Below, piece after piece: positions 22,954-55,600 of a stretch of DNA of 64,000 nucleotides. Below the pieces are notes generated by a model that saw nothing but the letters and a program-made list of their open reading frames with translations, was not told the DNA's origin and made no database searches. Made by a program: the position numbers and the translations under genes. The DNA comes from Lingula anatina (Eukaryota; Animalia; Brachiopoda): positions 1,674,001-1,738,000 of the forward strand of contig CM120649.1 in the NCBI GenBank assembly GCA_051362555.1, read 5' to 3'. Each line of letters starts with the position of its first letter. Position 1 is the stretch's first letter.

Positions 22954-25900
22954 TTTTGGACGGCCGTTTTGGTTTTTTGCTGGAAGTTAAGCACTTAAGT
23001 GTTTTTCTAGACCTGCTGTGTTCTGCTGATAGGAAAAACTTTCAAAATACCTCTAAATTTCTGGTAGTTTTCCTATTTTTCCTCTTAAATTGACGGCCAT
23101 ATTGAAAAATTCTCAATTTCTCGGAAGTAGCAACCGAGCTAATTTTGCTTCTCTCGGCCTGACTATTGGGCCTATGTGAGTGGCGACCCGACTAGTTAGG
23201 ATTCACAATAACCAGCACAACGTATGCCATATGACCAGGTCTTTCCCTTACTTCAATCTCAATATGCTGAGTGCTATGGGGATCAAACTCATTACTTCCT
23301 GAACCAGAATGGAACACTCTGTGTTGACACTTTATGCATTATTTATGCGTAATCCAGGCGTACAAGTCATGACAGTGTGAAAACGAAAAGATATGCATGA
23401 TCTATCTATTTAAATTGTTTGAATTGCAAAAATCTAATTAAGCTATATATGTGAAATAATAAAACATGCCTGATATTTAAATTGCCTTGCAACATATATT
23501 TTCAGTCAACTGCAGTGCTGGCAGTTGCTATAATTTTGGGATTTGCAAAGATAATGCTGACGATCCGTCTGGCTTCCACTGCATTTGCACATATGACTTT
23601 TTCGGAAAGAGATGCGAATTGCGTAAGCAATATCCTTGTTACACTTTCTATCGACTGTTGTGGATAACAGGAAATACTTATGTACAACAAAATATTGGAA
23701 AACATGTTTACAATTGCAACAATTGATGGCAGCACATATGTTTAATTTAATATAATGTATCCATTATCAGTGTGTCTTTTAACAGGTGGACATTTTGTAC
23801 AAAATGAATTCCATTGGTATCAGTTACCCTGATAAGTAAGTGCTATGGGGAATTGAAATATCTAAACTGAAAGAGCATGCATAACATTTTATAAACCTTA
23901 ATTGCAATATCTTCATTTCAGGTGTTTGCCAATTGAGTGACTGCAAGAATGGTGCGACTTGTGCAGAAAATACTACAAATTCGGAAACGTCGTGTATTTG
24001 TCCCGAGGGTTATAACGGAACAGCGTGCGAAATAGGTAAACCGTGCCTTTCTAATACTGTATATATTGTGTATCTCAGTATTGAAGGATAACAACTAATA
24101 GCTCTAAGTTGTGAAGCATTCAGAAAAAAAAATTACATAACAAATTTACCAGCGCAAAAATTGATGCCAGAAGATAGTTGCAAGAATCAGTAATAGTACC
24201 TTATATCGACTGATATTAAGTCATATGGCTCTAGATCTCTCTTTATAAACTATAATACCATATTCAAACGATTATGTGGAACTCATGAAAAAACGTCCTT
24301 TGGCTCTAGATCTCTATTTATTAATTATGGTACAACTAACATATTCAGGTGATTAGGTGGACGATATGAAAACAAGTCATGATATAACGTCCCTTGAGGC
24401 GGTTTAAAAGTTTCAAGTATTTTTCCGCATGCAAGTGCCAAATTACATTTTTTATTTGTTTTCAGCACATTGTGGGGAAAACGCTCAATGCACTAACATG
24501 CAGCGTAATATTCAAGTGCCTGAGAAAAATGAAAACTGCAATGCAGAATTTGAAGAATTATGTGTTTGTAATGACGATTACATCGGGAATGGAATCAACT
24601 GCACTAGTAAGTCTTAGGCCGTATTCAGAACAGTGGACTAACTAGTATACCGGTCAAATGTGGCCGACCCACTTAAATATTTCCCCTTAATCTACTCAGT
24701 GTCTATTAGTGGATTGGACGGTTGCGTTATTTGACGCCTAGACTATAGTTAGTCGACTCTTCTGATTGAATAGTTATTTTGGTATAGCAGAAGTTAGCTG
24801 AAATCATAACCTGGCAACCGTTTCACAAAAAAACTTAAGTCGGTTTCCCTGACTAAGAGCTTGGTTACCAACGTAATTAAGTCGTTACGGCACTAAGTCC
24901 CGTTTCACAAAGAATCTAAAAGGTCGCTTACGTCGTTTTTTTCTTAGCTGCTAGTCGACGATGTCTAGCCTCCTCGGGAGGAGCCTTAAGTCGGCAAGCT
25001 CAACTAAAACTCGGTAAATGAGAGCATAAACAACAAAATTTTGGAAAGAACATACCTCCTTCACGATATTGTGTTATGATATCCTTGAATAGCACTGAAA
25101 TTTATGGAATATTGAAATTAAAAATAAAATGCCACTTCACCCAGCCGATGGCGTGTTTGTTTATGTTTTTGACCACTAGACATCCTTCAGCAGTGTTCCA
25201 CGACAAGCTTATGTTTAACTGATTAGTAAAACTAATCAATAAAGTTCAAAAACAAACTTTGTTTGTGTTTTGGCTGATTTTTATTGTTGATAAACGATCG
25301 TTCTCGGTCGAAAGAGGCCATAAAATGTCATGTCTTGTGAAACTTTTGAAATTTTAAACCTCCCTTTCTTGAAGAGTTTCTCGTGCGCGTCGACTACGGT
25401 AAGCACACCAAGCTACGACTTTAGATTCTTTGTGAAACACTCCTAGTAGACTGCAGCGTAGTCGACCCAGCTAGGCCATTCAGTTCGAGCTAGTCAACTA
25501 CGGATTTAAGATTATTTGTGAAACGGGGGCCTGAAATAACTTAGAATCGACTCCCCCCCCCCCCTCGAGGACACCCCAATCTACTGTTTCACAAAAAAAA
25601 CCAAGGGCTCATGCACACCCCTAGTGATAAGTCTACCAAATTCCTAAAGTTAAATCTTTCTCACTCTAATGATCCAGGAAGAAAAAGCAGAAATTACGAC
25701 GCAGAAAAAGGAAAAAAATACAATAATATCAATCACCCCCGGTGACAGTCCAATCCCAAGTGTTACTAAAACCCCGTAATGCTCATGTACATGCTTGATA
25801 AAAGATATTCTAATTACCAATGTTTGAAATTTCTCAGCCTGTTAGTCTAGGAGACGAAGGAAAACACAAGGTATTACAAGAAGGATCAACCGCACCCAGG

Positions 25901-27262
25901 GACAGCCCAACCCCATGTTGCAGTAAATTTCTGTGCAGGGATGCCTATGCACACAATTTAAGCTGTCAAAAACACAATGTAAATATAATTAAGAATCGCC
26001 ACCCACACTGACAAATCAAATCCCAGTTGTACTAAAATCCTCATGTGCGAAACTCAGGTTTAATTATCCCCAAGGCTTCCTCACGCTTATGGTCAAGGGG
26101 GAGTTAGCTGAAATTTCAAGTTAAAAAGAATTTGTTATCATCCAACTCCCAGGGACATGCCGCCACACAATCCACTATGAAATTCCAAAGTCACCATGCA
26201 CATGATTCATTAAAAATATTAAAGTCTATCAATACCAAAATTATCTCACTCTTGTGCTACAAGAGGGGATGGCAAAAATTACAGTGTAAAAGGAATTGAG
26301 AATCAGAAGCGACGTCTTTTGTCTAAAAGGTGCGGGCATAACAAGCAATCAATTTTGTCAAGTGCAATGTTGTTTTGTCACCGATAACCATTTAACGTCA
26401 TGATAAGCCTGATAAAATCACGAAATCAAATAGCCGTCTTACCTTGACCGGTGTAACAGTAATCAAAAGCCCCCTACGGACCTCGGTTCCTGGTAATGGT
26501 TGTCCGTAGGACTAACATTACTAGGGATCCTGCAGGGACTTAGGTTCCTGGCTCAGAATTAGAGTAGGTAGGACTTGTATTACTGTCGGACTTTCATTCC
26601 TATTTCATTCCTATGACGGTAATACAAGTCCGGCCATTTGAAAGTCCTATCTTTAGGCAATAATACGGATAAATGAAAAAACGGTGTTTTGACGTGGCTG
26701 GAGCAACATTGATTTTACGTTGAATTTAGGTAAATCAACGGCAATTCAACGTATCTACCTGTTTTCAACGTTGATCCAACGTCACTATGCCTGCTGGGAG
26801 GGTGAATGAACACAGAAAACCAATGACTGTATATTGGCAATACCAGATCTGCCATTTCTAAACGTGTAATAAACACCAGTCACAGTACTGTCTGGAATTC
26901 AACTAAGATCCTTGAATCCAAGTCATCTGATATCCTACGTTAGATACGAGAGGTTATCAACATCAGCCGTCACCAGCCACCCATGAATAGGGTCGGGAAG
27001 GACAATCTACCTGACATTTATAAGAGGGCCGTGGCCACATATTGGTCACTGAGTATCAACATCTGCTCAAGTCATTCTGATAAAGGCCTTCATCCAGGTT
27101 GGCCGGAAGCTTCCAGTAGTTTTCTAGGCTTGTGTTTGAAAATATTCATTTACTACTTTATAAATGTGTTTGTATATTACTGACTATGCAATGTGCTCTA
27201 GTAAAAACGGGGTCAAGGTGTCCATAAAATAAATTTCTTTTCTTTCAGAATCGGCGGAATAA
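15819..27262 (+). CDS. Gene B: secreted 3-EGF-like protein (SP-A-B-C), 158 aa
   Basis: join(15819..15909,23506..23622,23922..24035,24466..24606,27249..27262) = 477 nt; all introns GT-AG and phase 1; no stops. MTGLLFCPSLVLALMACVFLSQTQLSQTST / VNCSAGSCYNFGICKDNADDPSGFHCICTYDFFGKRCEL / RVCQLSDCKNGATCAENTTNSETSCICPEGYNGTACEI / AHCGENAQCTNMQRNIQVPEKNENCNAEFEELCVCNDDYIGNGINCT / KSAE*. Confidence 0.85.
16227..20110. mobile_element. Academ-like DNA transposon derivative with fold-back structure
   Basis: Termini TAGGGCCAGACAATTTTCAC / GTGAAAATTGTCTGGTCCTA; ~560-bp TIR, with inverted homology continuing to ~17450/18585. Degenerate transposase C-terminus on both strands: FVCNLF..NEARF on minus; GWEIKNNELEVKWMTHPAPESVL..CSCRAYKLSCTDVCGCENCTN on plus. 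Confidence 0.75.
21540..22335 (+). mobile_element. Degenerate Tc1/mariner transposase relic
   Basis: Fragments QDRYIRLHHLLDRF and DVLPRPSYSPNMNPTEHLW resemble the Tc1 WPxxSPDLNPIEHLW motif. Confidence 0.75.
22897..22955. repeat. (TTTA)n microsatellite
   Basis: Seen directly. Confidence 0.95.
23506..23622 (+). CDS. Gene B EGF exon type A
   Basis: TTTCAG|...|GTAAGC; C-x4-C-x5-C-x11-C-x-C-x8-C. Confidence 0.9.
23922..24035 (+). CDS. Gene B EGF exon type B
   Basis: TTTCAG|...|GTAAAC; canonical six-Cys EGF with CKNGATC. Confidence 0.9.
24466..24606 (+). CDS. Gene B EGF exon type C (atypical)
   Basis: TTTCAG|...|GTAAGT; CGENAQC...C...CVC..YIGNGINC. Confidence 0.9.
24814..25530. mobile_element. 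PIF/Harbinger-like MITE with CTG (CWG) TSD
   Basis: TIR GCAACCGTTTCACAAA / TTTGTGAAACGGGGGC flanked by CTG on both sides; the empty site CATAACCTGAAAATAAT is in the gene D intron at ~53787. Confidence 0.8.
26799..27115 (+). mobile_element. Penelope-like relic in last intron of gene B
   Basis: Duplicate of 1535-1850. Confidence 0.7.
27249..27262 (+). CDS. Gene B terminal coding exon (KSAE*)
   Basis: Strong pyrimidine tract plus CAG; in-frame stop; conserved in every gene copy. Confidence 0.8.
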
Positions 27263-27724
27263 ACAACCAGAAAATGAAATAACAAAAATCGCAGGAGAGG
27301 ATACACAGTTTTGAAGATGAAATTAACACCCATGTTTATTAAAAATATTAATTTGGACATTCATTGAAAATTATGTATGAATTAAGTATATCAATTGAAA
27401 ATAGATATTTTGGGCATTGCATTTGGTTCTTTTTCCATTTTCTCCTCTCATTTGTTTTGCTGTTTATGATTCTAAACATAAAACCTTGTCGTATTTGGTT
27501 AAAGTACGAATAGAAATGAAAGTTGACAACGCACTACGGTCACTGGATTATTTTTCATGTTTTTAATATTTCAATAACAAATACGTACCACACTGCCTAA
27601 CTCCCGCATTGGCCACAACAGACTCATAACCAGCTGTAATAAAAGGCCAATTTTATGAGTGATTGAAGGAAGAGTGATTGCAGGAAAATCTCTAATTTTT
27701 TGAAGTTCCAACCAGTTTCTGTGT

Positions 27725-27765
<41 letters not shown>

Positions 27766-29060
27766 GTTTAACGGGGTCTGTCGTGTACAGCAAACAGTGT
27801 ATCTAGCCGAGCTATAGTATCATATTAATTTACAAATTTATCACATTGGTAATTCCGATCCGTTCCACCAGGAAAACAGTGATGCCAATGCCAAATATCA
27901 ACGTTTAAATTTCTAGATAAATATTTATTTATTGTAAGGAGGAAGTTTGTATATTACTAACATGTATTTGCCCTTTTCTTGGCCTGTTTTGGTTGAATAA
28001 TTTGGCTGATATTCCAACACTAACCTAGCCTAACCTAGCTGCTTCGGCATTCATAGCACACACAAACGAGAGAGAGAGAGAGAGGGACCAATGCCAAGGA
28101 TAGAAGGATTTTTTAAAGTTTTATTTACTCGGACTAAATCTTGCCTGACGACAAAGTCCAATTTCGCGTTCAGAATAAGCAAGTCGACTTAACAATCATC
28201 GATTTGCATATAGTCGTATATGAAAAGCGATGCTTGTTTAGTCACATTGCTTATTCTGGATAATTCAATATCATCCAAAGCGTCATACGGGTTTCCATTC
28301 GTTTTAATCCCTACGTCCTGAAATTAACTGGGTAGTGCAAATAAAATATAACAGAGAGGCCTCTTTGTTGCAATGTTTTGGCTGTTATTCCATAACGCGC
28401 GCACACACACACACACGCACATAGAAGAGAAAGAGAGAGAGAGAGGGAGGGCCAAAAAACTGACAGCTAGATCGCTGCCACGGAAAAAGGTTATCATAAA
28501 TTTGATTTAACTGAGAAATTCAAATATAATGTCGCAATCTAGTTATAGACCTTCATAAACTCTGGTTGAATGTTTTAGGTTACCTGTTACAAATTCGTCC
28601 ACATCCAGCATTTTAGGTGGTGGACAGACTAAACACATGTGTGTGTGAGAGAGAGAGAGAGAGACTGAATTTCATCAGAAATAATCATCGTAACAATTGG
28701 GTCAATTCGTTGGGAAACATTGTAATAAAAAAGACAAAAAAAAGTTTGCAAGAGTTGCCTTTACTGCTTTACCCAACACTAATATTTGTCAAGCTGCATG
28801 AGTGTTTATGGAAGTCCCGACCTGTATGGACATTTTCTAGGTCAAATATAAAACTACACTGATGTACCGGTACTTGCAGTATATTATAATCAGTAGTGAG
28901 GAGAGTTTGCATTTCCTGACCTGACATCAACGAGGAAAAACGAGGTAATTTCTATGTTAACTGAGAAATATTGTGATCAGTGCAATTCTGTAACTTGGTG
29001 GTGATCTTATCCACTGCGTACACTGATCGTTGCTAAATAGCCAGTGGAATGTATCTCAGC

Positions 29061-29218
29061 CAGGGGCGGACGGAAACTGTCTTCTGGGTCAGATTTTTTC
29101 CAAATTTATATTAACGGGCATCTAACTTTTTTGCTGTTGCAAGAAGGTCAAAAATCTTAGATGGAACAATAAAGATAATTTGGAAGACTCTCAGAAAATA
29201 TATCTGAATCCTCCCCTG
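29061..29218. mobile_element. ~160-bp MITE (duplicate of 3822-3979)
   Basis: Same termini and internal sequence. Confidence 0.65.
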
Positions 29219-30468
29219 ACAGTGTTTCCGGTGGAGTGGAATGCTTCCTCTGTAATATATTTAGTTTAAGCTTGGCCAGGAATCCAATTAACCTTTAAAT
29301 ACCAAATACTGATTAATAAAGGAGATGGTTGCCTGATATCACACTTTTAACAACCGCCTTTAGAATTTTAAGAGATGGATAGTGAATGTGTGAGAATAGA
29401 CACTCTCCATTTGTTGAAACAATTTCGTACATTCAACCACATATAGAGAAAATTTTGTTTCAAGTAATTCAACCATAAATATATATATATTTATTTTGCA
29501 ATTCTGATGTACTGTACAGTATCGACTTTCGTCTCTCATTTTAGTGACAAAGTGACAAAGAAATTACAAAGCAATTTATCAGCGCAAATACTGATACCAG
29601 GAGATATGTTAAATTGACCTCTATAGACTGATATTTCTTCCTGTTATCTCTATTTGTAAATTTTAATAAAACTAACAAACCCAAGTGATTAGGTGGACCT
29701 TTTATAAACAAGGAATTGATAATGCCCGTTAAGGTGGTATTAAATTTGAAGTATTCTGTCTCGGGTGAGTGCCAACGTACACAATTTTATTTATTTTCCC
29801 TACTGTTTAGTAACAAAAGTAAGAGATCACGTTTTCCCGCCCGTCTGAGAGCCGGTACGTCGGTGCATTGATGATTTCTGCTACCTTTTCTTAGACTATT
29901 AGGGTTGGTAAGTTCGGGCATTTCGGGCAATTTTCACTTAACAGATTGGGCTGCTACTTCATCAATATCCAATTTTAAAATCTCGTTCTAATGGTCTAGC
30001 AGGAGTTGGCAAAAATTGCAGCGTGAAAATTAAGATTGAACCCATCCCCATTGTAATGCATTCTACAATTTTCTACTTGGCCATTAGAATCAGAGAGATG
30101 AAACTTAGGGAAACGATAGACCTATCATCAGGGACGTGCGTTAGGGCTTTGGGATTTAAAAGTGCCTATTGATAGGCCTGTCCCCGGGGATGGATAATTA
30201 TAATTTCCTGGATTGTAAATTGAGCTATTTCCCTTAGAACTATAGTGAAAAAGTTGAAGCTTTTGGGATTGAATGCGCCAGATAATTTGCTTCCTATCTG
30301 AAGGAACCGATAGCCAATTCACAAAGATATTTTAAAGTGAATAAAAGATGGGCTAAATAAAGAGTCAAAGCAAGAGTGAACGACAATCTAGCCAACCGTT
30401 ATATATTATCTTTATCTCTAGATATAGTTTTATTCAGGTGTACATGAAATATATTTCTTTTCTTTCAG

Positions 30469-32029
30469 ACGTGACGGGATAAACCCCGGGATATACAATA
30501 GGGGATCTACCTTTATTTGATTATATTAAAAACCAAAATTATAATAAATATTCATTTGGACATTCATTGAAAATTCTATCTCAATTAAGCATATGTATTG
30601 AAAATAAAATATTTTGGGCATTGCATTTTATTATTTTTATTGCTCCGCAATTTTTACATCTCTTTTGTTTTACCATTTATGATTCTTAACATAGAACCCT
30701 TGTCGTTTTTAGCACGAACATATATAGACATTGACAAAACTATATGGTCAATGGATTATTTTTAAAGTTTTTTTTTTATATTTCATTAACAAATACCACA
30801 TTGCATTGTATCCAAACTGTGGTGCAAGTGCAGTTGTGAGCAAACTCTCTGCTTGACTACATTACAACATATTTCATGATTTTAAGGCTCAAGATTATTG
30901 GCCCTATATCTTGCAATGGTGAAACGTCCTTTTAAGAAATTTTCGGTGCATATGGTGATCCAGATCAAAATTATATAAAAAAAGTTTAAGTAGTCCCTGG
31001 CCTAACCTGAAATTTCATCAAAGCTGTTACTTGTATCTCTTGCAAAACTATATGAAGTATACATGCACTAGTTGAAAAGTGCCTTGTGTCTTGTTCGCAT
31101 GATCTGCCTTGATATTTGTGTCATAATTTTATTGATTTGCATTCCCTGATGATGAAACCCATATTTATTCATTCATTCATCCTTTCATTTGTCCATGTTT
31201 ACGAACATTTTTATTTCAAATATACAACATTGGTCAAAAAGGTTGTCCCACCTCTAATTCTATGTGCTTTTGTTTAAAAGACGCCACCAGATAGTACCAA
31301 ATTTACACACAAATAGCATGGGGATGTGCTTGTTAAAGGTCACGTGTCAAAACATCGTGTATGTCTATTGCGTACTGCAATTATCCCCTGCATCGGACGC
31401 CATTTTATGTCATCTTTTAGTTTTTTTACAGCAAGGGATGATATGTTGTCTTCAAATCCAGTGCCAAATGGAAGTCATCATTGTGATTATAAGGCAAACT
31501 GTTGTAAAGCAAATGACTTACACTTTCAATAATTACAGATAACAATTAAAACGGAATCAAATGTGTAAAAGGATAGCTATGAAGTATAATGATAACTATG
31601 GATGTGCTATAGTGACGATGCCTACAAAGGGAGGGATTAACGTGCTACAGTAAGAATTCTTTATTTATAAATGTACTTTGGAATTAAGGAGCTTCACACA
31701 AAAAATATTTTTAGTTAATTGTGAGAGATAATTTATAATATTATGTAGCACAATTGGTGATGAAAACTTCTACTCGAAGTATCAGAAGATATTTGTCTTT
31801 AGTGCTACTTTCCTTAATAAGGTCTAAAGGTGATGTTTAACTGAACCATGTCACTCAATGAACCAAATGTTTCACTCTTCAATATTTCAATCCCCTTGTA
31901 TTTTTTTTTCAGTCGAGTGCGACTCTAGAAAATGTTTCGACCGCGGGACCTGCGTACTGCACAGATATGGCCTGTTTTGCTTCCGGTGTCAATGTCTCGA
32001 AGGTTTTTAAGGACTGCGATGCAGTGTGG
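30469..32029 (+). pseudogene. Duplicated pseudogene remnants: terminal exon 30469-30482, degenerate exons 31432-31649 and 31913-32029
   Basis: Paralogous to 6161-7645, with the same TAA stop in the 117-nt EGF exon; the signal exon is deleted in this copy. Confidence 0.8.
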
Positions 32030-32429
32030 GTGAGTTCTCTCCCCTCCAGACTGCACATTTACCTGTAGTCAACCAGTGTTCCGTTATTATGATGCAAGAG
32101 TAGCTTATATGGTCTGAGATCAGGTGCCTCTCTGTGTAATTGTGATACTGCAAGTGCCAAAATTCTAGTGATTAAATTTAGCCATTGGCTAAATAATTCC
32201 AATATGTAGCCAAATGATATAATAACGCCCGTTAAGTTGATTTGAAAGTGAGAAGTACACAATCGTTTGCGTATATATATATTAAAAAGAAAAATAGAAC
32301 AGCAGCTTTTTTGCCCCGACAGTTTTCATTGCATCTTCAGGGGGTTTGTTTATTTTGCTTACTATATGATGTCATAAAGGCTCAGTGTGATGTCTCTAAC
32401 AATGGATATTTGTGGTAATGGTAATGATG

Positions 32430-34210: not shown

Positions 34211-34249
34211 AAATATATGTTATTATTATTAAACTGCAAAACATCGTCG

Positions 34250-39223: not shown

Positions 39224-39308
39224 ATGATGGGAGTGTTCTTCTGCCCGAGCCTTGTTTTGGCCTTGATGGCCTTACTCAGTCAAACTCAGCTTAGCCATAC
39301 TAGTACCT
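39224..39308 (+). CDS. Gene C signal-peptide exon
   Basis: ATG ATG GGA GTG..., donor GTAAGT at 39309. Confidence 0.85.
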
Positions 39309-42300
39309 GTAAGTGAATATGGACACTATAATACCTTGTCTGCAATTATGATATACATTGTCAATTTTCATCTTCAGTTGACACTGTTTGTCCATGTTAT
39401 TTCTGTCATTTTTTCCTGGAGTTAAGTCCATAAAAGATACGTGAATTAATAGACCTATATATTTTCCGGACCCGAGGGAGTTTTAGTACGACTGAGGGAC
39501 CCATTGGATAACAGGCCCGTAGTTGGTAGGGGGTGCGAACGCACTGTCCTTTCACTGTGTGATGTACACATGCAGTGTGTTTCACTGAGGGCCCTGCTAT
39601 GCGTTGTTATATATAATTCACTTTATCCAATAAAAATTGGGGCTAATATCACTGCTTTTGGCAAGATGTTTATAACATGCTGTGGCCAAATTTAAATGTA
39701 GTTTTTATTGAGGCAAAGACTACGTAAGAAAATCGTTACTATTAATTATTATCTTTCAGTAGCACTTTAGCCAAGTATGGTGGTTGGAACTACCTATTTG
39801 TATACTCAAGTGTGGTAAACCTGTTTTTCCAATTTTTATTTAATAAAAGAAATAATAATGGGCACAAAAAGGCATTGCGTACATAATCGAATACATCTAC
39901 GGGGATTTTTTTTTTTTAATTCTCTTTTATGGAATTTTTCGGTTCTGAATCATTCCATCTCCCCGCAGAAAATACAATCCAAGCTGCGACGTATGTGACC
40001 CTCGTAATGAGCATTCACAATAAACAGCACCGTTATATGGCCAGGTCTTTTTCCTACTCCAACCTCTATTTGCTGAATGCTATAAGCGAGGAGACAACAC
40101 GTACATAGTTTAATTGTCTTTGGTATGAGCAGGCCAGGGGAATAAAACTCCATGCGTGGACGTTTTAAAATCATTTGGACATGGCGCACAAGGCGTGGCA
40201 TTTTGAAAATAATAAGATATACATGGCAAATCAATTCAAATTGTTTGAATTTCAAAAGTTTCAACTATATATTTATATGTAGAATGATAAAGCATGCCTA
40301 ACATTTAAATTGCCTGGCAATATCTATCTTCAGACGGATGCGAGCCAAACAGTTGCTATAATGATGGAGTTTGCTTAGAAAGTGTCGAGGATCCTTCTGG
40401 CTTTCAGTGCATTTGCCCTGGTGCCTTTTTTGGAAAAAGATGCGAATTGCGTAAGCAGTGTCCTCATAACAAATTTGTCCTTTGTGGATAACAGGAAATA
40501 GTTATACAACATGTTAGAAACATGTTAGAAAGCAAGATTAATATCGCAACAATTGATACCAGCAGATATGCTTCATTTTATGCAATTTATCCATTAGCAA
40601 CGTGTCTTCCTCTATATGTAGGAGTTTTAATTTATTTATTATTTTTTTCTGCAAAACGACCATTATGTCATCATCGCTTGATGGCGCGGTATGGTCCCAT
40701 GTATATTGACGACATCTAGTTTAAATGCTTTTATTATTAAATATAAGAAAAAAGGCTCAGCAGAAGTACGCAAAAATATCAGAGTTCTGTACGAAATGAA
40801 TTCCATAGATATCAGTTACCCTGTCTAAGTAACTGCTTAAATCATAAGAATTGAAATATCTCAAATTAAAGAGCACGCGTAGCAGTTTATTACCCTTGCA
40901 ATATTTCATTTCAGGCCCGTGCCGCCTTAATTACTGCTGGAATGGTGCAAAGTGTGCAGTTAATACTACAAATTTGCTTTCGTGGTGCATTTGTCCGGAG
41001 GGGTATCACGGACAATTTTGCGATAAAGGTAGGCCGTACCCTTCTTATATTGCATTCCATGTGTAATTTGAAGCAGCAAAAGAAAATACAAAGAGAATTT
41101 ACCATCGCATATATTGACACCAGAACATATGCAATAGTAACTTCTATAGCCTGAGATCAAGCCATATGACACTAGATCTCTGTTTGTTGACTAAAAATAC
41201 AACTAACATATTCAAGTGATTAGGTGGAATTTACAAAACACGTCCTATTGTAACACCCGTTAAGGCGGTTTAAAAAGGTCAAGTATTCTGTCACGGGCGA
41301 ATGCCAGCTTATATCTTTTTACTTGTTGATAGCAACGTGTGGGGAAAACGCCCAGTGCGTTTACATACCGCTAAACAAGCCATTGCCAGAGAACAATGAC
41401 AGCTGCAATTCAGCATCTTACCAATATTGTGTTTGCGAAAAGGGTTACCTTTGGGACGGATTGAGCTGCTCCAGTAAGTTTTGTAGTTTACTGGATTATT
41501 GAACAATTCCGAAAATTGAAATTTGACATGATGAAAGTACAGGAGTCCTTTAAACAGGCAGTTTTGGGGATAAATTTATAGACCCCAGAGTTTTAGCCAA
41601 TTTTAAAATTTAACTACCCCCCTGTATATGAATGAAATGATTAAACATCTCTAACATTTAAATTGGCTTGACATCTATTTTCAGACGAATGTGAGCCTGA
41701 CAGTTGCCATAATGATGGGCTTTGCGCAGATCATATTGATGAATCGTCTGGCATCCACTGTATTTGCTTCTTAGACTTTTTCGGAGAGAGATGCGAATTG
41801 CGTAAGCAATGTCCTCGTTACGCTTACTATCGACTTTTCTGGATAATATGAAATAGTTATGTATAGCACAAGCTCATAATACATGTTTACTATAGCAAGA
41901 ACTGATACCACCAGATATGCTTCATTTTATATAATTAATTCTATGGTGGTGTGTCTTCCTAAATATGTTAATTAAATGAGTTATTCATTTATTTAATTAT
42001 TTATTTTATAGTTTTTTACTGTGAAATGAACAGTATTCCATTATCGCTTGATGGCGCGGGGTGGTCCAGTGTTAATTAATATAACACATTGTCAACATTT
42101 AGTTTAAGTGATTTTACATCTGAAGAGTAAGAAAAATGGCCTAGGAAAGTACGCAAAAAGTGACAGGTGTACGCAATTAATTCCATTGATATTAGTTACC
42201 CTGCTTAAAAATGCATACAAAGTCAATTTTTTGTCACAAAAACCAACCAAATGCCAGCATATAGTTTCAAGTAGTATAACTAAGAGAATTACCAAAAGGC

Positions 42301-43694
42301 ATTGCTTAATTTTACTCCAAAATGATGTTTGAACGGATTTTTCTGCTGGCATTCTAAGCTGTATGTCAATGGGGCAGGAAAGGAGGTCAGAAAAGTAGGT
42401 TAAATTTACAACCATAAATTTAAAGAAAGGAGCAGTCTAAAGGTCTTTTATGGCTGTTCGAGTGATCTATTCAGTTTATCCCTTAGCATGTCGAATTTAT
42501 TTGAGTCATATAAGAATCTAGTAGAAGTGGTTTACATGTATTACTGGGAATCCACGCTCCACCGATGCTCGGTTCGTATGTACCTTTAAGTAAATGCTTA
42601 AGTTATAAGAATTGAAATAACTTAACGGTGAGAGAGCATTTTATAATTCTTGCAGTGTCCTCATTTCAGGTCCGTGCCGCAATAATGGATGCTTGAATGG
42701 TGGAACGTGTGGAGTTCATACTATAACTTTGCGATCGTGGTGTATTTGTCCCGATGGTTATTTCGGAACATTGTGTCAAAAAGGTAAGCCGTGCCTTTCT
42801 AATACTGCATACTTTGTGTATCTCAGTATTAACATATAGCAGCTGATAGATCTAAGTTGTGAAGCATGCAGCAAAAGAAATTACAAAGCAAATTTAGCAG
42901 CGCAAAAATTGCTGCCAGAAAATATGTACATGTAGCAAGTACAGTAATAGTACCTTCTACAGACTGATATCAAGTCATATGGCTCTAGATCTCTCTTTAA
43001 AAACTATAAAACCATATTCAAATGATTTTGTTACGAAAACGTGTCCTATGGCTGTAGATCTCTGTTTATGATAATACAACTAACATATTCAGATGATTAG
43101 GTGGAACTTATGAAAACACGTCATAAAATAACGCCCATTAAGGTGATTTAAAATATTCAGGTATTCAGTCGCGGGCGAGTGCCAACGTACGTTTTTTAAA
43201 TTTTGTTTTCAGCACAATGTGGGGAAAACGCCCGATGCGCTGACACGCTGCGTAATCGTACATTGCCCGAGAACAATGACAACTGCAATTCATTATATTA
43301 CCAACATTGTATTTGCAACGAGGGTTACAGCGGGGATGGATTCAACTGCACCGGTAGGTCCTAGGTCGCATTCGGAACAGTGGACTAACTAGTTCTCGGG
43401 TCAAATATGGCTGACTCACTTGAATAATTCCCCCTAATCTATTCAGTGTCTTTATTGGATAAGACAGTCCTACCCCAAACTGTATTCAGAGTGAGGAAAA
43501 AACAGACATGGGCGAATTAAAGAGTTTAAGCAAGAAATAACGACACTCTAACGACACTCTAGCCACCTGTAATAATAATTTAAATTTGTGTTTATAAATT
43601 ATATCTTAAGCAATTTGACGTCAGGCAATGTCTACAACAATGAAATCTAAGGAAAAATTTGAGTAAAGGGCTATTCATAGTACATTGAGACATT

Positions 43695-43754
<60 letters not shown>

Positions 43755-44519
43755 GCCTGTTTATTCAGGTCTGTTCATATACTTTTGCTATTCTGCGTTT
43801 TTATCAAAACTATTTTTATTAAAAATATATATATTTTTTAATATCAACACTTAATAAATTTGCAAAAAATGCTTATCAGCTTGGTAGCTGGATCATAAAT
43901 AAACATTATCAAACACAAGCCGAGAAAAATGTCTTACTGTTAGCCAACCGTGGTGGGACTATATGTGAGATTAACTGCCGTGACTGCAATTCTTTTTTAC
44001 TTATTGAGACAGGTAGATATTATAAGACCAGGGTTAGTGAACACAGGAAACCAGTGAATGTATATAGACAATATACCAGCTCTGCCATTTCTAAGCATGT
44101 TATAGACAACGGCCACAGTACTGCCTGGAATTCAACCAAGGTCCTTGGATCCAAGTCATCTGATATCCTACGTAAGATACAAGAGGCTATCAACATCAAC
44201 CGTCTGCAGCCACCCACGAATAGGGTCGGGGAGGTCGATCTACCTGACATTTATAAGAGGGTCGTGGCCTCTATATACTATAAAGTCAAACTTAAAATGA
44301 TGACAGTGAGTATCAACATCTACGTACTCACGTCAGTCTGATGAAGGCCAACGTCAAAAATCTAACAGTGTGAACGTTTTCTCGGTTTGTGTTTGATAAT
44401 TTTCATTTAAGACTGAATAAATGTGTTTCTATATTACTGAATGCACAATGTGCTCTGATAAAAGCGGTGTCAAGGTGTCCATTAAATATATTTCTTTTCT
44501 TTCAGAATCGACGAAATAA
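39224..44519 (+). CDS. Gene C: secreted 6-EGF-like protein (SP-A-B-C-A-B-C), 280 aa
   Basis: join(39224..39308,40334..40450,40915..41028,41333..41473,41685..41801,42670..42783,43213..43353,44506..44519) = 843 nt; all introns GT-AG and phase 1; no stops. SP MMGVFFCPSLVLALMALLSQTQLSHTST; ends ESTK*. Confidence 0.85.
40334..40450 (+). CDS. Gene C EGF exon A1
   Basis: YGCEPNSCYNDGVCLESVEDPSGFQCICPGAFFGKRCEL. Confidence 0.9.
40915..41028 (+). CDS. Gene C EGF exon B1
   Basis: RPCRLNYCWNGAKCAVNTTNLLSWCICPEGYHGQFCDK. Confidence 0.9.
41333..41473 (+). CDS. Gene C EGF exon C1
   Basis: ATCGENAQCVYIPLNKPLPENNDSCNSASYQYCVCEKGYLWDGLSCS; acceptor GATAG. Confidence 0.85.
41685..41801 (+). CDS. Gene C EGF exon A2
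   Basis: NECEPDSCHNDGLCADHIDESSGIHCICFLDFFGERCEL. Confidence 0.9.
42209..42585 (-). mobile_element. 377-bp Kolobok-like MITE, copy 4 (in gene C intron)
   Basis: TTAA TSD; the uninserted paralogous intron is at ~40815-40840. Confidence 0.88.
42670..42783 (+). CDS. Gene C EGF exon B2
   Basis: RPCRNNGCLNGGTCGVHTITLRSWCICPDGYFGTLCQK. Confidence 0.9.
43213..43353 (+). CDS. Gene C EGF exon C2
   Basis: AQCGENARCADTLRNRTLPENNDNCNSLYYQHCICNEGYSGDGFNCT. Confidence 0.9.
43698..43751. repeat. (TA)n microsatellite
   Basis: Seen directly. Confidence 0.98.
44030..44350 (+). mobile_element. Penelope-like GIY-YIG endonuclease C-terminal relic
   Basis: RVSEHRK..TSSAISKHVIDNGHSTAWNSTKVLGSKSSDILRKIQEAININRLQPPTNR..LPDIYK, followed by CTGATGAAGGCC. 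Confidence 0.8.
44506..44519 (+). CDS. Gene C terminal coding exon (ESTK*)
   Basis: TTTCTTTTCTTTCAG|AA TCG ACG AAA TAA. Confidence 0.8.
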
Positions 44520-45844: not shown

Positions 45845-45882
<38 letters not shown>

Positions 45883-46849: not shown

Positions 46850-46920
46850 TATTATAACCAGGAAGTGAGGAGACGTTGCATTTCGTGACCCGACTTCGAC
46901 GAGAAAAAAGGAGGTAAGTT
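46850..46920 (+). promoter_or_regulatory. Candidate TATA/Inr promoter and short non-coding first exon (gene D; conserved in paralogs)
   Basis: TATTATAA about 30 nt before TGCATTT, then donor GAG|GTAAGT at 46914. Donor-like sites are retained at 3706, 13156, 37054 and 61457. Confidence 0.4.
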
Positions 46921-48643
46921 TTATGTTAACTGTGAAATATTCTGAGCGGTGCAATTCTGCAAATTTATGGTGATCCCCTGCACACATCGATTGTTGGCAA
47001 CTAAACAGTGAAATATATGTGGTTCTGGTGGGAGGTAGTGCTTCCTCTCAAATATGTGTTGTTCATGTTTGACCAGGAATCCAATGAACCTAAATACGAA
47101 CAAAGAGTGATTAAAACAGGCGATGTTTACCTTGGTTCAAACTTTGAACAACCGCCTTTTGAATTCTAAGAAAGGAATAGTGTCATTTTCCATTTGTTGA
47201 AACTATTTCAAACAAAGAAAGTGCAAATTTTATTTCAAGTGATTTCATTATATGTTTATCGCTACAGACTATCAGGCAAATTGATTTGAAATTTATTGAC
47301 ATTGTACGGGCGTCCTAATGGACGTTTGTCGATCCTGCAGGTATGTTCTCCAAGATAAATGGATTACATGCATTTCTGCTTAACGAAAAACAGCTGGTAT
47401 TTACAGAACCTGCGAATGAGTTGCAAAAATGGTTTTAACAATATTTGGTTATAAGATGAACACACTCTTGACTTAATGGGTCCCCATATGTGTCACGATT
47501 ATCACAAAGTACACTGTGACACTGGTAATCCATTCTTATGGTTTTAATATGTAGTTGTCTGTATGAAACAAATGCATGTGACCACGGTCAAGGAATAGAT
47601 ATCCTTCCTTTTTGTCCTGTGTCAGAACTTGGTCCAAAAGCACCAAAACCAGTTTTATTGCTATGGTTACATAGCTAATTTTTGGCCTATATTTTGAAAA
47701 TCTTACAATTGTTAGGTTTCGAAGCCTTATTAAAGACATTAAACCAAGTAATTATTTTTAAAAAGCCGATTCAGATAAACAGTAGTTTTAACTTTTTGTG
47801 GTACTTTTTGCATTATTAGATGTCCGATGTCCCATTTGTCACTTGTATGCGAAGTGTTGTTAAAATTAACATTTTGACCAATTCTGAGAGAGTTTAGTCC
47901 CGGAAGTGGTCCCAGAAGTTTCAGATTTCCTTATAAGTGGGCCATAATAACTTTTTTGTTATTTATAGCAAGAAGAATAAATCATTTAACGTTTTGTGAA
48001 CAATGCTTATTTATTGTTTTAAAGGGCCAAATTTAACTTTTTCCACATTTTAAATTTTGGAATGTATTTTATTGTGCAATATAACTCAATGAAATTTACA
48101 AAATTTATATTTTATTTGTCTTTAAAGTAGTTTTAAGGAGGTTTACGCTTTAAATTTGAATAATCAGGCAAATTTATTTGAAATTTATTGACATTGTACG
48201 GGCGTGCTAATGGACGATTGTCGATCCTGCAGGTATGTTCTCCAAGATAAATGGATTATATGCATTTCTGCTGAACGAAAAACAACGGGTATTTACAGAA
48301 CCTGGGAATGAGTTGCAAAGTTGATTTAAACAATATTTGGTTATTAAGATGAACACAGTCTTGACTTGATGGGTCCCCATATATGTCACGATTATCACAA
48401 AGTACACTGTGACACTGGCGATGCATTCTAATAGTTTTAAAAGGGCAGTTATCTGTAAGAAACAAATGGATGTGGCTAAGGTAAAGGAATAGATATTCAT
48501 ACTTTTTGTCCTGTAGCAGACCTTGGTCCAAAAGCACCAAAAAAAGCTTCATTTACAAACACCAATGCTTGTTGCTATGGTTACAGGTAGAACCTGATTT
48601 TTGGCCAATTTATTTTTAAATCGGGAGAGTTGAAAACCTTCTA

Positions 48644-50029
48644 CACACACTGGACAAAAGAAGTGTCACCCCTACTGAGCCAATACTATGGGGGAGATAA
48701 ATGACTGTGGAATGATATGCTCCTAGTATCATTTTATTAACATCAAATTTCACAAAAAATCACAAAATGAGAACAAAATATACATTCTACCAAAATATGT
48801 AGTTTCAAGTCCAAAATTAGTACTTAGTGGCATAGCCACGTGACCTAACAATAGGTGCCAGTCTACGAAGCAAGGATTCATTTAATTGTCTGATGCGTTC
48901 AGGGCTATTGCTGGCCCAAGCATGAAACACTGAATATAACAGAGTTTCTCTGCTGGTTAGACGGGCATTTGTAAAAAGTTTTGACATATCATTCCACACA
49001 TTTTCTATTATGTTTGTATCCGGACTCTGGGCAGGCCACATCACCCTGCGAATGTACTGTTGGTCAAACCAATCATCAACTGCTCTGGGCCTGTGACAAG
49101 GAGCATTGTCATCCTGGTGAACAGATGGATTATTCCTTTCACCAAATATGTTAGTAATAGATGGTAGCAAGCCTGACTCCAAAACATCGATATATTTCTA
49201 GTGATTCATGTTTCCATTAACCACTATCAATTCGCCCAAGCCATGGATGCTGATGCAGCCCCACACCATGTTGAATATGCTGCTCCGGGTTGGAAAATTC
49301 AGTGCATGTGGTTCAAATGCTTTACCAGCAGTTTGCCAGTATAGTACCCGTCTGTCATCAGAGGTCAGAGCAAAGTGACACTCATCAGAAAAAATATATA
49401 GGACCAATTGTCATGAACTGTCCAGTTCCAGATCCTGTTGACCCTAGTTTACTCTACGTTACCTGTTTTGTAACGATTTAAGAGGTTTCAGTCTTGCTAC
49501 CCTGCTGTACACTCTCTGAGCATGTAACCGACGCCTAGCAATTTTCACAGACACATTCTTATGTGTGAAATTGTTCCACTGTGTTGTCAACTGACAAGCA
49601 GTGTCGAACTTTGGCAACCTGGACATCAAAATAAGTCGTCGGTCTTCACGGCCAGTATTTTTTCTTGGACGACCCATCAGAGGCAATTTGTCTCTTGATC
49701 CAGTGTTTCTATACCGAGACCAGACCCTCTGCACGGTTCTGACTGAACAATTCAATTGTATCGATATTCTGACATTGCTTATATTCCGCCTCTTCAGGTT
49801 AATAACTTGCACCTATAACCGTTAGATAATTACCTGTATCTTGCCATACTGGAGGAAGACAGGAATAACATTTGCTGTACATGTACAAGACCAACAATAC
49901 AATTCCATGGTATAGCGGTTTTATACTCATTATTCACATTATAAGTAGACCAGGCATTATAAGTACCCAAGATCTGCCTACTTTCATTACTCTGAGTTAG
50001 GGGGTGACACTTCTTTTGTCCAGTGTGTG
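48644..50029 (-). mobile_element. Full-length Tc1 (DD34E) transposon with disrupted transposase
   Basis: TIR CACACACTGGACAAAAGAAGTGTCACCCCT; TA TSD. Minus-strand ORF pieces at 48817-49847 include GRPRK, FSDECHF, QDDNAPCH and WPAQSPDTNIIENVW, with 34 residues between D and E. Confidence 0.93.
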
Positions 50030-50579
50030 TAATTGGTAGGTATCGAAGCCTTACTCTTAAAACATTAAACCAAATACATTATTTTAAAAATCTGATTGAT
50101 ATAGAACGTAGTTTTAACTTTTTTGCCATACTTTCAGAATCTTTAATTAGACGATCGATGTCTTGTTTGCCACCTGTATGCGAAATGTTGTTAAAGTAAA
50201 CATGTTTTTTTTTTTTTATTATTTCTGAAAGAGTTCCAGAAGTGGTGCTTTGTAAAGTTTCAGATTCCTAATACGTGGATCAAAATAAGATTTGATTATT
50301 CATAGCAAGAAGAGCAAATCCTCTATCGTTTTATCAACTATATTCATTTATCCCTTTAGGAGGCCAGATTGGAATTTCTCCATATTTCCAATTTTCGTAT
50401 ATATTTTATGGTGCCTGAACTCAAATCAAATTTACAAAATTTGATATGTTATTGGTCATGATGGTAGTTTTGAGGAGGTTGATGTTTTAAATTTGTAAAA
50501 ATAGTGTGAAATATTGGTATCTTCACAGGTACTTTGTATTTTGACAACCATATGTCTTGTTATCTGGAAAAATACAAAA

Positions 50580-51075
50580 AATAATAATATTTATTTATAG
50601 TCTTAACTCCAACATATGCTCAATAGACTTTACAGAATATATAAAATTCACAATTAAAAGAAAAAATACTAATGGTCATAAAATGAAACAAGGAAAATGA
50701 TGGAAGAAAAATTGTTAAAGTTATAAAATAGATATATAAAATGGTTTAGAGGTGGAAATTAAAACTATGAACTAAGAAACAATTCTTACAAGAATTCAAA
50801 AATAATATTGCATAAAAAGGTAGATTTTAAGTTCCTTTTTAAAATGTCCAGGGTCTACAATTTGTCTATGGTTGATGGGAAAATTATTCCATTCTCTAGG
50901 TGCTGTAATTTTAAAAGCCTTGTCACCGTATGACGCCATGCAATCTTGCCTTACAAGCCTTAAAAAGAAGGTACTCACCTGATCTAAGATTTCTTGCTGA
51001 TGTATAATGTGAAACAAGCTCATTTGAATAAAAGGGTGCAAGTTAATAAAATGCTGCATGTGCAAACGTTAAAAG
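50580..51075 (-). mobile_element. L2/CR1-type LINE 3' fragment
   Basis: ASYGDKAFKITAPREWNNFP..HFKKELKIYLF; same family as 33250-34210. Confidence 0.75.
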
Positions 51076-52576
51076 TGGAACTTCATTAAAACAGTTGTGA
51101 TTTTTTTTTTGAGTGCGGGTCAGTAGGAGAGCAGATATGTTCTGTACATGAGCACTATCTAAAACAGTTTACAATTGTATGGTCATCGATTTTTATTACA
51201 TAATTACGTTTTAACATTATTTTCGTTTATTATAGAGACAAACGCTCCACATATAGCAGTACCGTGGCATTATTTTTACTTCAGCTTATTTATTTCCTTA
51301 TGAAGGGGGAATGGGGGCATCCTTCTTTCAGTTATCATTGGATTATTAATGAGAGTTTATTTATTTATTTACCTATTTATTGACCTATTTATTTATTGTT
51401 TGTTTGCTGCTTGCAAAAATAGCAATCAAGTATTTGCGATGTCAATGAATTCCATTTCCTTTCTTGACATCTGTGCAATCAAAACGCAATATTTACGTAG
51501 ACGGAAGTATAATTATAGCATCAAACTAGACAAAAGTTGGGTCGTGCCATAAAATGAAAAAGACATTGCACAATTACACATAATGTAGTTATATTTGATT
51601 GTTTAGCTAATCAAGATATTACTTTCATTCTTGGAATATCAAAATTACAAATATTGACATTTTATGCGTTTGACACCACTAAAATTGCAAAATCATATTA
51701 TTTGTAATATATCTATGTCATTACACATTTTATAATTGCGACTATCCCACCATTCAATGCGCGATGCTTGTTATCATGAAACTGATGCTATTGCTGATAC
51801 ATTGATGAGTAGTACTCAGCCTCATAAGATAAAACACGCTGAGGGGGGTCACGGTGTAACTGAATGTTTAGAGAGGTTAAGCTTCAATTTTGTGTAAAAA
51901 GTGAAAAGGTAAATCTTATGATTATTATCAATATACAGCACAGATCAATTGACTTAGCTAGTTTTTGAAATGTTTAATGTTGAAAAATGTTATGCATAAT
52001 ATGATAAAACATGATTTTATAAAATGTGCATCAGTGTAGTTTTTGTTTTCTTCTTCTTATTATTATTATTATTAAATAGTATTCCATGAACAAAGTATTC
52101 TTCACGTGAAAATTTACAGCAAACAAAAAGATTCTGATCGAAAAGCCTTGAGATCCCACGGCAGAGTTTAAGTTTCATCTTTTCTGTCAGGTTTACAGAA
52201 TGATAACATATCTTATATAAGCTACCAAGCTGAGCAGGATGTTATCGTAACCAGCACTTGATACTATGTTAAATTACATTGGACGCTCTGTAAAAATGAT
52301 GAACCACGCACACGCACAGTTAACTGCAACGATGTTGCCATGAGCATTCGGTTGCAAATTGCAATGCACCTGAAAAAGATTATATATTGCCATATCGCAT
52401 TGTTTACGTGCCTCGTAATCTGTGATATTTTCAAGGAAGCAAGCCCCATTTAGTTTAAAGATTTACATACATGTATGATGATGTTGAAATTTTACCACTT
52501 TCTTTTTCTGAACATCTTATTCTATTCCAGCATAGAAGTGCTATAAAAGAATACTATCTCCAACATCAACCAATCA

Positions 52577-52661
52577 ATGATGGGATTGTTGTTCTGCCCG
52601 AGTCTTGTTCTGGCCTTAATGGCGTGCGTATTTCTCAGTCAAACTCAGCTGGGTGTCACAG
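52577..52661 (+). CDS. Gene D signal-peptide exon
   Basis: ATG ATG GGA TTG..., donor GTAAGT at 52662. Confidence 0.85.
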
Positions 52662-55600
52662 GTAAGTGTCATGTGATGTACAATAACATGTTCTCAGCGG
52701 GCAAATCATGTTGTTTCACGGTTGAAACAGTGTTGAACTAACGTACTTGTGTACAACATGTTTACTATTGCAACAATTGATGGCAGCACATATGTTTCAT
52801 TTAATATAATGTATCCATTATCAGTGTGTCTTTTAACAGGTGGGCATTTTGTACAAAATGAACTCCATAGATGTCAGTTAACCTGATTAGTAAATGCTTA
52901 AAATATAAAAATTGAAATATCAAAACTGAAAGAGCATGCCTAGCATTTTATAAACCTTAATTGCAATATCATCATTTCAGGTTCGTGCCTCATGGAAAAA
53001 TGCTACAATGGTGGAACGTGTAGAGAAAGTACTACAAATTCGAAAATCTGGTGCATTTGTCCCAAGGGTTATAGCGGAGCAGCGTGCGAAAAAGGTAAAC
53101 CGTGCCTTTCTAATACTGCATGCATTCTGTATCTGAGTATTAAAGGATAACAACTAATAGCACTAAGTTGTGCAGCATGCAGCAAAAGAAATTACAAAAC
53201 AAACATAATAGCGCAAAATTGATGCCAGAAGATAGTAACAAGAACCAGTAATAGTAACTTCTATAGACTGATATTAAGTCAAATGACTCTAGATCTCTGT
53301 TTATTAATTATAATACAACTTACATATTCAGATGATAAGGTGGAAGTTATGAAAATGCGTCATGAAATGACGTCCATTAAGGTGGTTTAAAAATTTCAAG
53401 TATTCTTTTCGCAGGCAAGTGCCAAATTATATTTTTTATTTGTTTTCAGCAAAATGTGGGGAAAACGCCCACTGCATTTACGCGCCGCGTAATCAACCAG
53501 TGCCTTTGAACAATGACAACTGCGATACATTATTACTTGAACGTTGTGTTTGCAACGAGGGTTACAGTGGGGATGGAATCAACTGCACTGGTAAGTGTTA
53601 GGCCGTATTCTGAAAAGTGGACTAACTAGTATGCCGTTCAAATGTGACCAACCCACTTGAATATTCCCCCCTTATCTATTCAGTATTTATTAGTGGATTG
53701 GAAGGTCGAGTTATTTGACCCCTAGACTAGTTAGTCGACTCTTCTGATAGATCAGTTATTTTGGTATAGTAGAAGTTAGTTGAAATCATAACCTGAAAAT
53801 AATTTAGAATCGACTACCTCCCCCCTCATGGACAGCCCAATCTACAGTTTCACAAACACCCTAAGGGCTCATGCACACCCCTAGTGATAAGTCTACCAAA
53901 TTCCTAAAGTTTTAACTTACTCACTCTTATGATCCAGGAAGAGAAAGCAGAAATTACGACGTAGAAAAAGAAAATAATATCAATCACCCCCGGGGAAAGT
54001 CCAATCCCAAGTGTAACTACAAATCCGTAATGCTCATGTACACCCTTGATAAAAGATATTCTATTTGAAATTTCTCAGCCTGTTACTCTAGGAGACGAAG
54101 GAAAAACACAAGAAGAATCAACCGCACCCAGGGACTGTCCACGCCCATGCACACAATTTAAGCTATCAAAAACGCAATGTTAATATAATTAAGATTCGCC
54201 ACCCACACTGACAAATCAAATCCCAGTTGTACTTAAATCCTCAGGTCTAATTATTCCCAAAGTTTAAACTTCCTCTCTTTTATGGTCAAGGAGGAGTTAG
54301 CTGAAATTTAAGTAAAAAAAAATGTTATCATCCAACTCCCAGGGACATGCCACCACACAATTCACTATGAAATTCCAAAGTCCCCATGCACATGATTCAT
54401 TAAACAATATTGAAGTCTATCAATATCGAAATTTCCTCACTATTGTGCTACAAGAGGGGATGGCAAAAATTACAATGTAAAAGGAACTGAGAATCAGAAG
54501 CGACGTCTTTTGTCTAAAAGGTGCGGGGATAACAAGCAATCGATTTTGTCTAACAAATAGCCGTCTTACCTTGACCGGAACACTTTAAGTCCATTGTGGC
54601 AAATTAAATCGACTTTTCATAGTCAGCAATCAGATTTTAGCAGACTAAACTTAGCCAATTGAGTTAAGATTAATTTATTTATTCATTTATTTTCCCCGCT
54701 CTTTGGTGACAAAATTCAAAGATATATTTTCTCGCCCGTCCGATATTTTATGTTTTTGAGAGGACTTTTATTGTTTTTAATCGGCAAAATGATAGATGCA
54801 TTCTTGAATTTAAAAAAATAAAAACATGTTCTGTGTTATGATGATCAAAAACCTTTGAGTAACCTAAGAGTGCTAATAAGTAGTATTTTTTTTTTTTTTT
54901 TTTTTTTTGCTCCAGACATCTCACACGATGTCAATGAAAAACCAATTAAACTAGGCCGACTCTTAACAGTATGGGAGGTGCGGGGATGTGTGATGGCTAC
55001 CCACTGTCGCCATCTAGTTGTGTATGAAACACGTCCCAGATAATTTGCTTCTTGTCTGGAGAAAACGATAGCCAATTCACGAGGGTACTTTTTAGAGTGA
55101 GAGAAAAAAGGGCGAGTCGAAGATTCTAATCAAGAGATAACAACACTCTAGCCAGTTGCAATATAGCATCTTTATGGATATAGGTTTTTTTTTTTTTTTT
55201 ATTTCGAGTTTGGTTTATAAAAATAACTTTAGAAATTTGGCGTCAGATAATGCCTATATCAACGGAATCTGATCAAACATTTGAGTAAAGGGCTAAACAT
55301 GTATGCATAACATTAAAATATGTACATAACATACAAGATTTATGTAAGTCTGTTTATTTAATATGGAGAAATGTGAAAGTACTTAAAACGTCAAAAGTTA
55401 CAAGGAGCTCCAAAATAACAATGTTTCTATCATATTTACCATCACATTCATCTTATCATTTTTAATTAAAAAATAAAAATACTGAATTAATTTGCAAAAA
55501 TGTTTATCAGCTTGGTAGCTGGATCATAAATGAAAATTATCAAACACAAGCCTAGAAAAATGGCTAACCGTTAGCTTTCCGTTGTGGGGCAGGTAGACAA

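Follow-up and report, generated by a model that had tools for sequence, protein, structure and literature searches.

EGF-module genes in a tandem cluster of Lingula anatina have exons that diverge faster than their introns

We analyzed a 64,000-nt window of the Lingula anatina genome (GCA_051362555.1, contig CM120649.1, positions 1,674,001 to 1,738,000; window coordinates are used below) carrying three intact plus-strand genes, B, C and D, in a tandem cluster. The genes are predicted to encode small secreted proteins built from epidermal growth factor (EGF)-like modules, and their coding exons have diverged faster than the adjoining introns. Such outrunning of introns by exons is rare and strongly indicates molecular conflict; most described cases are genes of venom, immunity or gametes. 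We read the cluster as part of a secreted EGF family whose positive selection would come from conflict with microbes or parasites, at a probability of roughly 0.45.

Gene models and divergence of exons and introns

The gene models came from a reading of the whole window, with exons snapped to AG/GT splice sites. All three genes share a layout of one signal exon (S), phase-1 symmetric A (117 nt), B (114 nt) and C (141 nt) exons, and a last exon of four codons. Gene B has the order S-A-B-C (158 predicted residues), gene C has S-A-B-C-A-B-C (280 residues), and gene D has S-B-C without exon A (117 residues). In gene B, the signal exon would be joined to exon A across a repeat-filled intron of 7.6 kb. 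A hydrophobic-looking alternative frame of exon A was dropped, as the phase-1 splice sites and the relatives give the EGF frame. The features are as follows.

15819..15909, plus strand: gene B signal-peptide exon, with ATG start and a GT donor in phase 1, its frame continuous with that of exon A
23506..23622, plus strand: gene B exon A, EGF domain with Cys spacing 4,5,11,1,8; AG/GT, phase 1-1; Pfam EGF 20.7 bits
23922..24035, plus strand: gene B exon B, EGF domain with Cys spacing 4,5,10,1,8; Pfam EGF 27.3 bits
24466..24606, plus strand: gene B exon C, EGF-like with shifted Cys spacing 5,15,7,1,10; EGF_3 match over the last 15 residues only
27249..27262, plus strand: gene B last coding exon, four residues and stop, then a 3′ untranslated region with poly(A) signals
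39224..39308, plus strand: gene C signal-peptide exon
40334..41473, plus strand: gene C cassette 1 (A1 40334–40450, B1 40915–41028, C1 41333–41473)
41685..43353, plus strand: gene C cassette 2 (A2 41685–41801, B2 42670–42783, C2 43213–43353)
44506..44519, plus strand: gene C last coding exon
52577..52661, plus strand: gene D signal-peptide exon
52981..53094, plus strand: gene D exon B; Pfam EGF 30.3 bits
53450..53590, plus strand: gene D exon C
56223..56236, plus strand: gene D last coding exon

The first-pass annotation of this DNA had compared genes B and D and claimed that the EGF exons evolve faster than their introns. Its counts were reproduced exactly for exon B (23922–24035 vs 52981–53094; 28 of 114 nt, 16 replacement and two synonymous codons), for the intron that follows exon B (11 differences in its first 100 nt) and for the first 25 signal codons (five differing nucleotides, four of them synonymous). 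Exon C (24466–24606 vs 53450–53590) differs at 36 of 141 nt, with 21 replacement and three synonymous codons as had been counted, and the cysteines are invariant in all 18 Cys columns across exon types A, B and C. The 100-nt intron sample was slightly favorable to the contrast, the whole B–C intron differing at 44 of 354 nt (12.4%) and, with 30 nt trimmed from each end, at 41 of 294 (13.9%). The claim also holds with fairer baselines: exons B and C together differ at 64 of 255 nt (25.1%), compared with 474 of 3,547 aligned non-coding columns (13.4%; Fisher p 1.5e-6). These columns came from local alignments, which favor alike stretches, and a global intron alignment agrees.

Between the same two genes, the exons also exceeded the deep intron (p 0.001), with a weaker contrast against the upstream block (18.2%, p 0.014) and the 3′ block (17.5%, p 0.022). 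Exons B and C were more diverged than the B–C intron in all six pairs of copies, which are non-independent. On the four-copy tree, codon positions 1 and 2 changed 1.56–1.94 times as fast as the deep intron (30 nt trimmed per end), and position 2 alone 1.63–2.11 times as fast (p 0.0007–0.006). The contrast of faster exons and slower introns is real.

The modules themselves fall into two kinds. Exons A and B are EGF-like domains, with six cysteines at EGF spacing. The B exons scored 27.3 and 30.3 bits against Pfam EGF (PF00008; cut-off 21.5), and the single A exon scanned came just under that cut-off at 20.7 bits. For exon C, all four copies matched EGF_3 (PF12947) at 20.8–25.6 bits, below the curated cut-off of 28.5, and the match was confined to the last 15–16 residues. 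By sequence, the six-cysteine module of exon C resembles an EGF_3 domain without the first cysteine and with a new cysteine in a lengthened loop, to which its first disulfide may have been re-wired. In the predicted structure of a relative (P0080), the first domain aligned with Notch1 EGF12 (Z 6.4, root-mean-square deviation 1.5, 39 residues), and the exon C-type module had a predicted local distance difference test score of 76–92. The rows of the fold search were dominated by that first domain; fold searches returned generic EGF matches, to the ordinary EGF beside module C, and did not isolate module C. Atlas searches with exon C and with protein P0120 gave no match at or above 0.9. When the exon C profile was compared with solved structures, the plant stomagen peptide topped three weak rows (E 0.08–0.18), which we took as chance.

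Neither the gene models nor a Pfam scan of eight exons contained a DSL domain, transmembrane segment or enzyme domain. There is no propeptide, the signal exon joining the first EGF exon directly, and dibasic pairs occur only inside exon A, next to a cysteine. The 11 EGF exons show no insertions or deletions among them. A Gly-x-Arg motif before the last cysteine (Gly39 and Arg41 equivalents) is present in all three A copies and absent from B and C.

Selection on the EGF modules

Replacement to synonymous counts of 16:2 and 21:3 are no proof of selection, because about three-quarters of sites are replacement sites. Whole-exon averaging mixes frozen cysteines with fast loops, and site models part them. 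Applied to the A, B and C exons, these models found a class of codons with a ratio of nonsynonymous to synonymous rates (dN/dS, omega) above 1. Twice the log-likelihood difference (2dL) was 26.5–41.4 for M1a/M2a and 26.6–41.4 for M8a/M8 over three frequency models, with about one-third of the 121 codons at omega 4.6–7.1. Each exon was significant alone (A, p 0.03; B, p 0.008; C, p 0.003), and exon C remained so under all three trees (p ~0.01 under both others). Nineteen codons had a posterior of at least 0.95, all of them between cysteines, and sites flagged in the window also differ between two relatives outside the fit, P0003 and P0118 (34/39 vs 25/64, p 1.4e-6). The signal exons gave an omega of 0.16 (p 0.003), indicating purifying selection.

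Multi-base mutation, site-rate variation and CpG effects are known failure modes of site models. The 2dL was 17–26 with multi-base mutation alone allowed, 11–13 with site-rate variation alone, and 10.6–12.3 with both jointly (p 0.002–0.005). Removal of every codon touching a CpG left 70 codons and a 2dL of 19.6–26.5, and the largest value in 27 null simulations was 4.49. With three to four copies per exon, the non-cysteine positions are very probably under positive selection. The selection proposed in the first-pass annotation is supported by the site models, but not by the whole-exon counts, which do not reject a dN/dS of 1. The idea that the cysteine codons are frozen in the conotoxin manner was rejected, as they differ in 14 of 90 pairwise comparisons.

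Several observations weigh against positive selection, and most of them would be expected if the loops were instead under relaxed constraint, with introns homogenized by conversion or exons more mutable. Pairwise omega between genes B and D was 1.58 (p 0.29), values over eight comparisons ranged from 0.6 to 2.67 with one at p <0.05, and the one-ratio, whole-exon omega of 1.2 was no different from 1. The codon tests rest on a small sample, the 11 exons of the window (A, three copies; B and C, four each); the site models were our own implementation, with site calls by naive empirical Bayes. The comparison of P0003 with P0118 reflects a shared variability profile, which loop tolerance would also give. 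Between genes B and D, the intron blocks differ by 8–12% and the upstream and 3′ blocks by about 18%, so that some gene conversion inside the gene is possible. Model-based dS for this pair (0.19–0.23) lies above the intron distance (~0.14–0.15), and two-fold sites differ at 3 of 26, compared with 6% intron transitions. Of the 508 pairwise differences between exons, 86 are CpG transitions. The exons may thus mutate somewhat faster, although at four-fold sites only 2 of 18 differ.

Conversion confined to introns, which the first-pass annotation had named as an outcome that would undo its claim, does not explain the contrast, since the exons are more diverged than any non-coding block, including the upstream and 3′ ones. 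No clear conversion tract was found between genes B and D, the longest identical non-coding run being 61 nt (permutation p 0.074). The intron and exon B back the same split, (B,D) vs (C1,C2), and exon C is ambiguous. The class with omega above 1 persists under rate variation, multi-base mutation and CpG masking, and two dead EGF exon copies in the window differ at just 5 of 117 nt inside a 97.4% identical block. An account without positive selection is therefore improbable.

Relatives in Lingula and comparable systems

A profile of three C exons was searched against 1.84 billion representatives and gave 89 matches, most over the last 15 residues only. Ten were looked up: eight short ones, aligned over the greater part of the module, were L. 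anatina RefSeq models with automatic names, and the other two were unnamed generic EGF-repeat proteins. A second profile search (48 matches) added two more Lingula genes ranking above generic EGF proteins; one exon C used as query in a word-index search gave none, where the profile had succeeded. The related L. anatina RefSeq genes number 12, on 12 scaffolds, and all full-length relatives are L. anatina gene models named automatically (delta-like, jagged, crumbs and, in three cases, 'adhesive plaque matrix protein 2'). These names come from EGF similarity only, and the dozen genes that bear Notch-pathway or adhesive names form one misnamed lineage-specific family.

The closest relatives (XP_013390330.1, XP_013418876.1 and XP_013386451.1) share signal peptide type, A-B-C order and exon-C Cys spacing with the window genes; nine further loci are more distant. 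In XP_013390330.1, the closest, the signal peptide is nearly the same as that of gene D and the module order is A-B-C. None of the RefSeq relatives is window gene B, C or D: the best identities between a window exon and a relative were 31/46, 26/38 and 25/37 residues, with a ceiling of 67–68% among stored relatives. The exon-C Cys pattern (5, 13–18, 7–9, 1, 10–11) occurred in 14 of 163 stored proteins (25 of which derive from long interspersed nuclear elements, LINEs), all 14 from Lingula; as it was written from the family itself, this count is descriptive and no blind test. Two L. anatina relatives, P0044 and P0118, differ once over modules A and B and 11 times within 23 residues of module C, a clustering suggestive of either a swapped exon or a burst of substitutions.

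Among the Lingula papers listed, subscription journals being largely outside this scope, no title or abstract opening described the family, and the available part of PMC8166818 held nothing specific. These genes apparently form a Lingula family that was previously undescribed and that has an EGF variant of its own. The evolutionary pattern itself is well known and not new, and snake venom genes show it too.

Comparisons with published systems refer to the available sections of each source. Conotoxin genes share a conserved signal exon, conserved introns and a fast mature exon with fixed cysteines (PMC3862624). They differ in their signal-pro-mature layout, many insertions and deletions, strongly raised mature-exon dS and venom-duct product (PMC3862624), whereas the Lingula genes have no propeptide, no insertions or deletions in the 11 EGF exons and at most a modest rise in dS. 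The likeness to conotoxins drawn in the first-pass annotation accordingly stands for the evolutionary pattern, a conserved signal and a hypervariable Cys-framed mature region, and not for toxin identity. The MgCRP-I family of Mytilus appears to be the closest biological analogue. It is likewise a lineage-restricted secreted family of a filter feeder with very low expression, a conserved N-terminal region, hypervariable Cys-framed modules, multi-module precursors and positive selection (PMC4558851). MgCRP-I peptides use another scaffold with a dibasic-cleaved propeptide, are usually cationic and carry their modules in one last exon (PMC4558851), unlike the Lingula genes, where every EGF module has a separate phase-1 exon. 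Ant (Mg1a) and Stichodactyla anemone toxins with an EGF fold also pass directly from signal peptide to EGF without an anchor, and are single hormone-like EGFs produced at high level in venom (PMC8851504); the Lingula proteins instead have two to six modules without EGF receptor (EGFR)-ligand spacing.

Functional readings and the surroundings of the genes

We propose that each symmetric phase-1 exon encodes one disulfide-braced module. Unequal crossing-over could then insert, remove or exchange modules and leave the reading frame intact, and module gain and loss are exemplified by the doubled A-B-C of gene C and the missing exon A of gene D. After duplication, selection would drive the loop residues apart, with the signal peptide and cysteine frame held, and some copies would die; dead copies in the window and the 12 related RefSeq genes support such birth and death. 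In mucus or coelomic fluid, the products may act as soluble binders that are multivalent and lack enzyme activity, and loop selection would follow from their binding changing targets on microbes or parasites. With its tolerant loop, such a small disulfide-braced module could serve as a natural binding scaffold.

Diversification among paralogs and their turnover in a burrowing filter feeder fit conflict with microbes or parasites best. Granting positive selection, a defence role has about an even chance. In a 'living fossil' without venom, the pattern points to a conflict partner, and the family could offer a handle on brachiopod defence or fertilization, which are little known at the gene level. 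We regard as rather unlikely a broader picture in which the genes form an exon-shuffled repertoire of soluble EGF scaffolds, a brachiopod counterpart of immune binders or toxins, whose lineage-specific re-wired module pins a long hypervariable loop and whose rapid turnover has left two Lingula genomes without near-identical copies in common.

Other results count against the microbial reading. An immune or recognition role remains a plausible candidate. Eight of the 11 modules are acidic, unlike cationic antimicrobial peptides, and the MgCRP-I peptides tested showed neither antimicrobial nor toxic activity, according to the available part of PMC4558851. Splicing and secretion of the products are predictions from sequence: in eight of the nine listed RNA runs, each read to 6–30%, no spliced reads were found at family exon boundaries (X1, X3, X4 and X7 over 39000–57000; X2, X5, X8 and X9 over 52300–53750). 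The RNA depth over both intervals sat on repeats, and in run X8 seven reads derived from the signal region of another, more distant member of the family, with traces on exons B and C.

This near absence from the runs would suit a narrow, seasonal tissue and hence proteins with which a broadcast spawner achieves recognition at the gamete surface or in spawning fluid, diverging under the same selection through sperm–egg conflict. Gamete recognition in marine animals typically involves small secreted proteins that are under strong positive selection. We consider this unlikely, as the divergence lies among paralogs of one genome with frequent gene death, which would be more usual for defence families, and the gene models contain no ZP, CUB or lectin domain.

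It is less probable again that the products are matrix or adhesive proteins of the shell, setae or pedicle, diversifying with material properties. EGF is among the most frequent Lingula shell-protein domains, and young extracellular-matrix paralogs are reported to be under positive selection (PMC4595640, PMC13425148). The Lingula genome paper describes EGF-collagen shell proteins along with that selection, and its available sections do not mention the present family (PMC4595640); in the 2026 shell proteome EGF is frequent (PMC13425148). Three relatives are automatically named 'adhesive plaque matrix protein 2', which points the same way. In the 65-protein shell tables, however, every EGF-type row has at least 759 residues, and Tables 25–26 hold no short EGF-only entry, on a comparison of lengths and domains rather than sequences (PMC4595640). 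The modules, moreover, are mostly acidic. Mussel plaque proteins are basic and tyrosine-rich.

Defensive toxins mimicking the EGF hormones of predators, like those of ants and sea anemones, are very improbable. A signal peptide followed directly by EGF without a transmembrane anchor is the toxin precursor form (PMC8851504), exon A carries Gly-x-Arg in all three window copies, and the evolutionary pattern matches that of conotoxin genes (PMC3862624). Yet none of the 11 modules has the EGFR-ligand spacing CX7CX4-5CX10CXCX8C (PMC8657471), the precursors are multi-module without a propeptide, and the structural models best resemble Notch-type EGFs. Brachiopods are not known to have a venom system, and among the papers listed no title or abstract opening revealed one. 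The toxin label of the first-pass annotation is not sustained, the relatives all coming from a filter-feeding brachiopod and neither the ligand spacing nor a propeptide being present. Least probable of all are endogenous signaling modulators, soluble Notch or EGFR pathway binders co-diversifying with a receptor family: the Notch-like spacing of exons A and B, the Notch EGF repeats that lead the fold matches and the names delta-like, jagged and crumbs speak for them, but there is no DSL domain or membrane anchor, and developmental ligands are normally conserved, not turned over.

The window has a base composition of about 36% GC and many internal duplications. Besides the intact genes it contains the following remnant.

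5030..6174, plus strand: dead family copy; signal exon 5030–5120 with a stop at codon 3, intron remnant, last exon at 6161

This copy has no A, B or C exons. A family last exon nearly identical to that of gene B lies near the left edge (1985–1998), and therefore another family gene would lie upstream of the window start. Positions 1–7897 and 25276–32282 are ~98% identical, the latter copy lacking 4256–5170, the part with the dead signal exon; the pair is either a recent segmental duplication or an uncollapsed haplotype. A fourth EGF exon type, with seven cysteines, occurs at 7529–7645 and 31913–32029 with the same in-frame stop in both copies, which differ at 5/117 and follow a last exon, with no gene to which they could belong. 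An inverted exon C fragment with downstream intron, closest to C1, is found at 33035–33115.

A block of 2.2–2.5 kb occurs three times at ~91% similarity (11964–14393, 45674–48158 and 60247–62423) and precedes genes B and D; behind the third copy no signal exon follows within the window. A LINE-type retroelement at 57074–59871, its reverse-transcriptase frame interrupted by a stop near 58813, splits a block otherwise 92–94% identical to 44062–47885. A 385-bp repeat is present in four copies, 92–96% alike (33310–33694, 37798–38182, 38272–38656 and 42205–42589), one of them inserted in the A2–B2 intron of gene C, and draws heavy coverage by RNA reads that stem from other loci. A long inverted-repeat element (16217–20120) with arms 74–87% alike sits within intron 1 of gene B. 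At the right edge, a 152-codon open frame on the minus strand (63528–63986) is rich in Asp, Glu and Ser and contains an internal 81-nt repeat.

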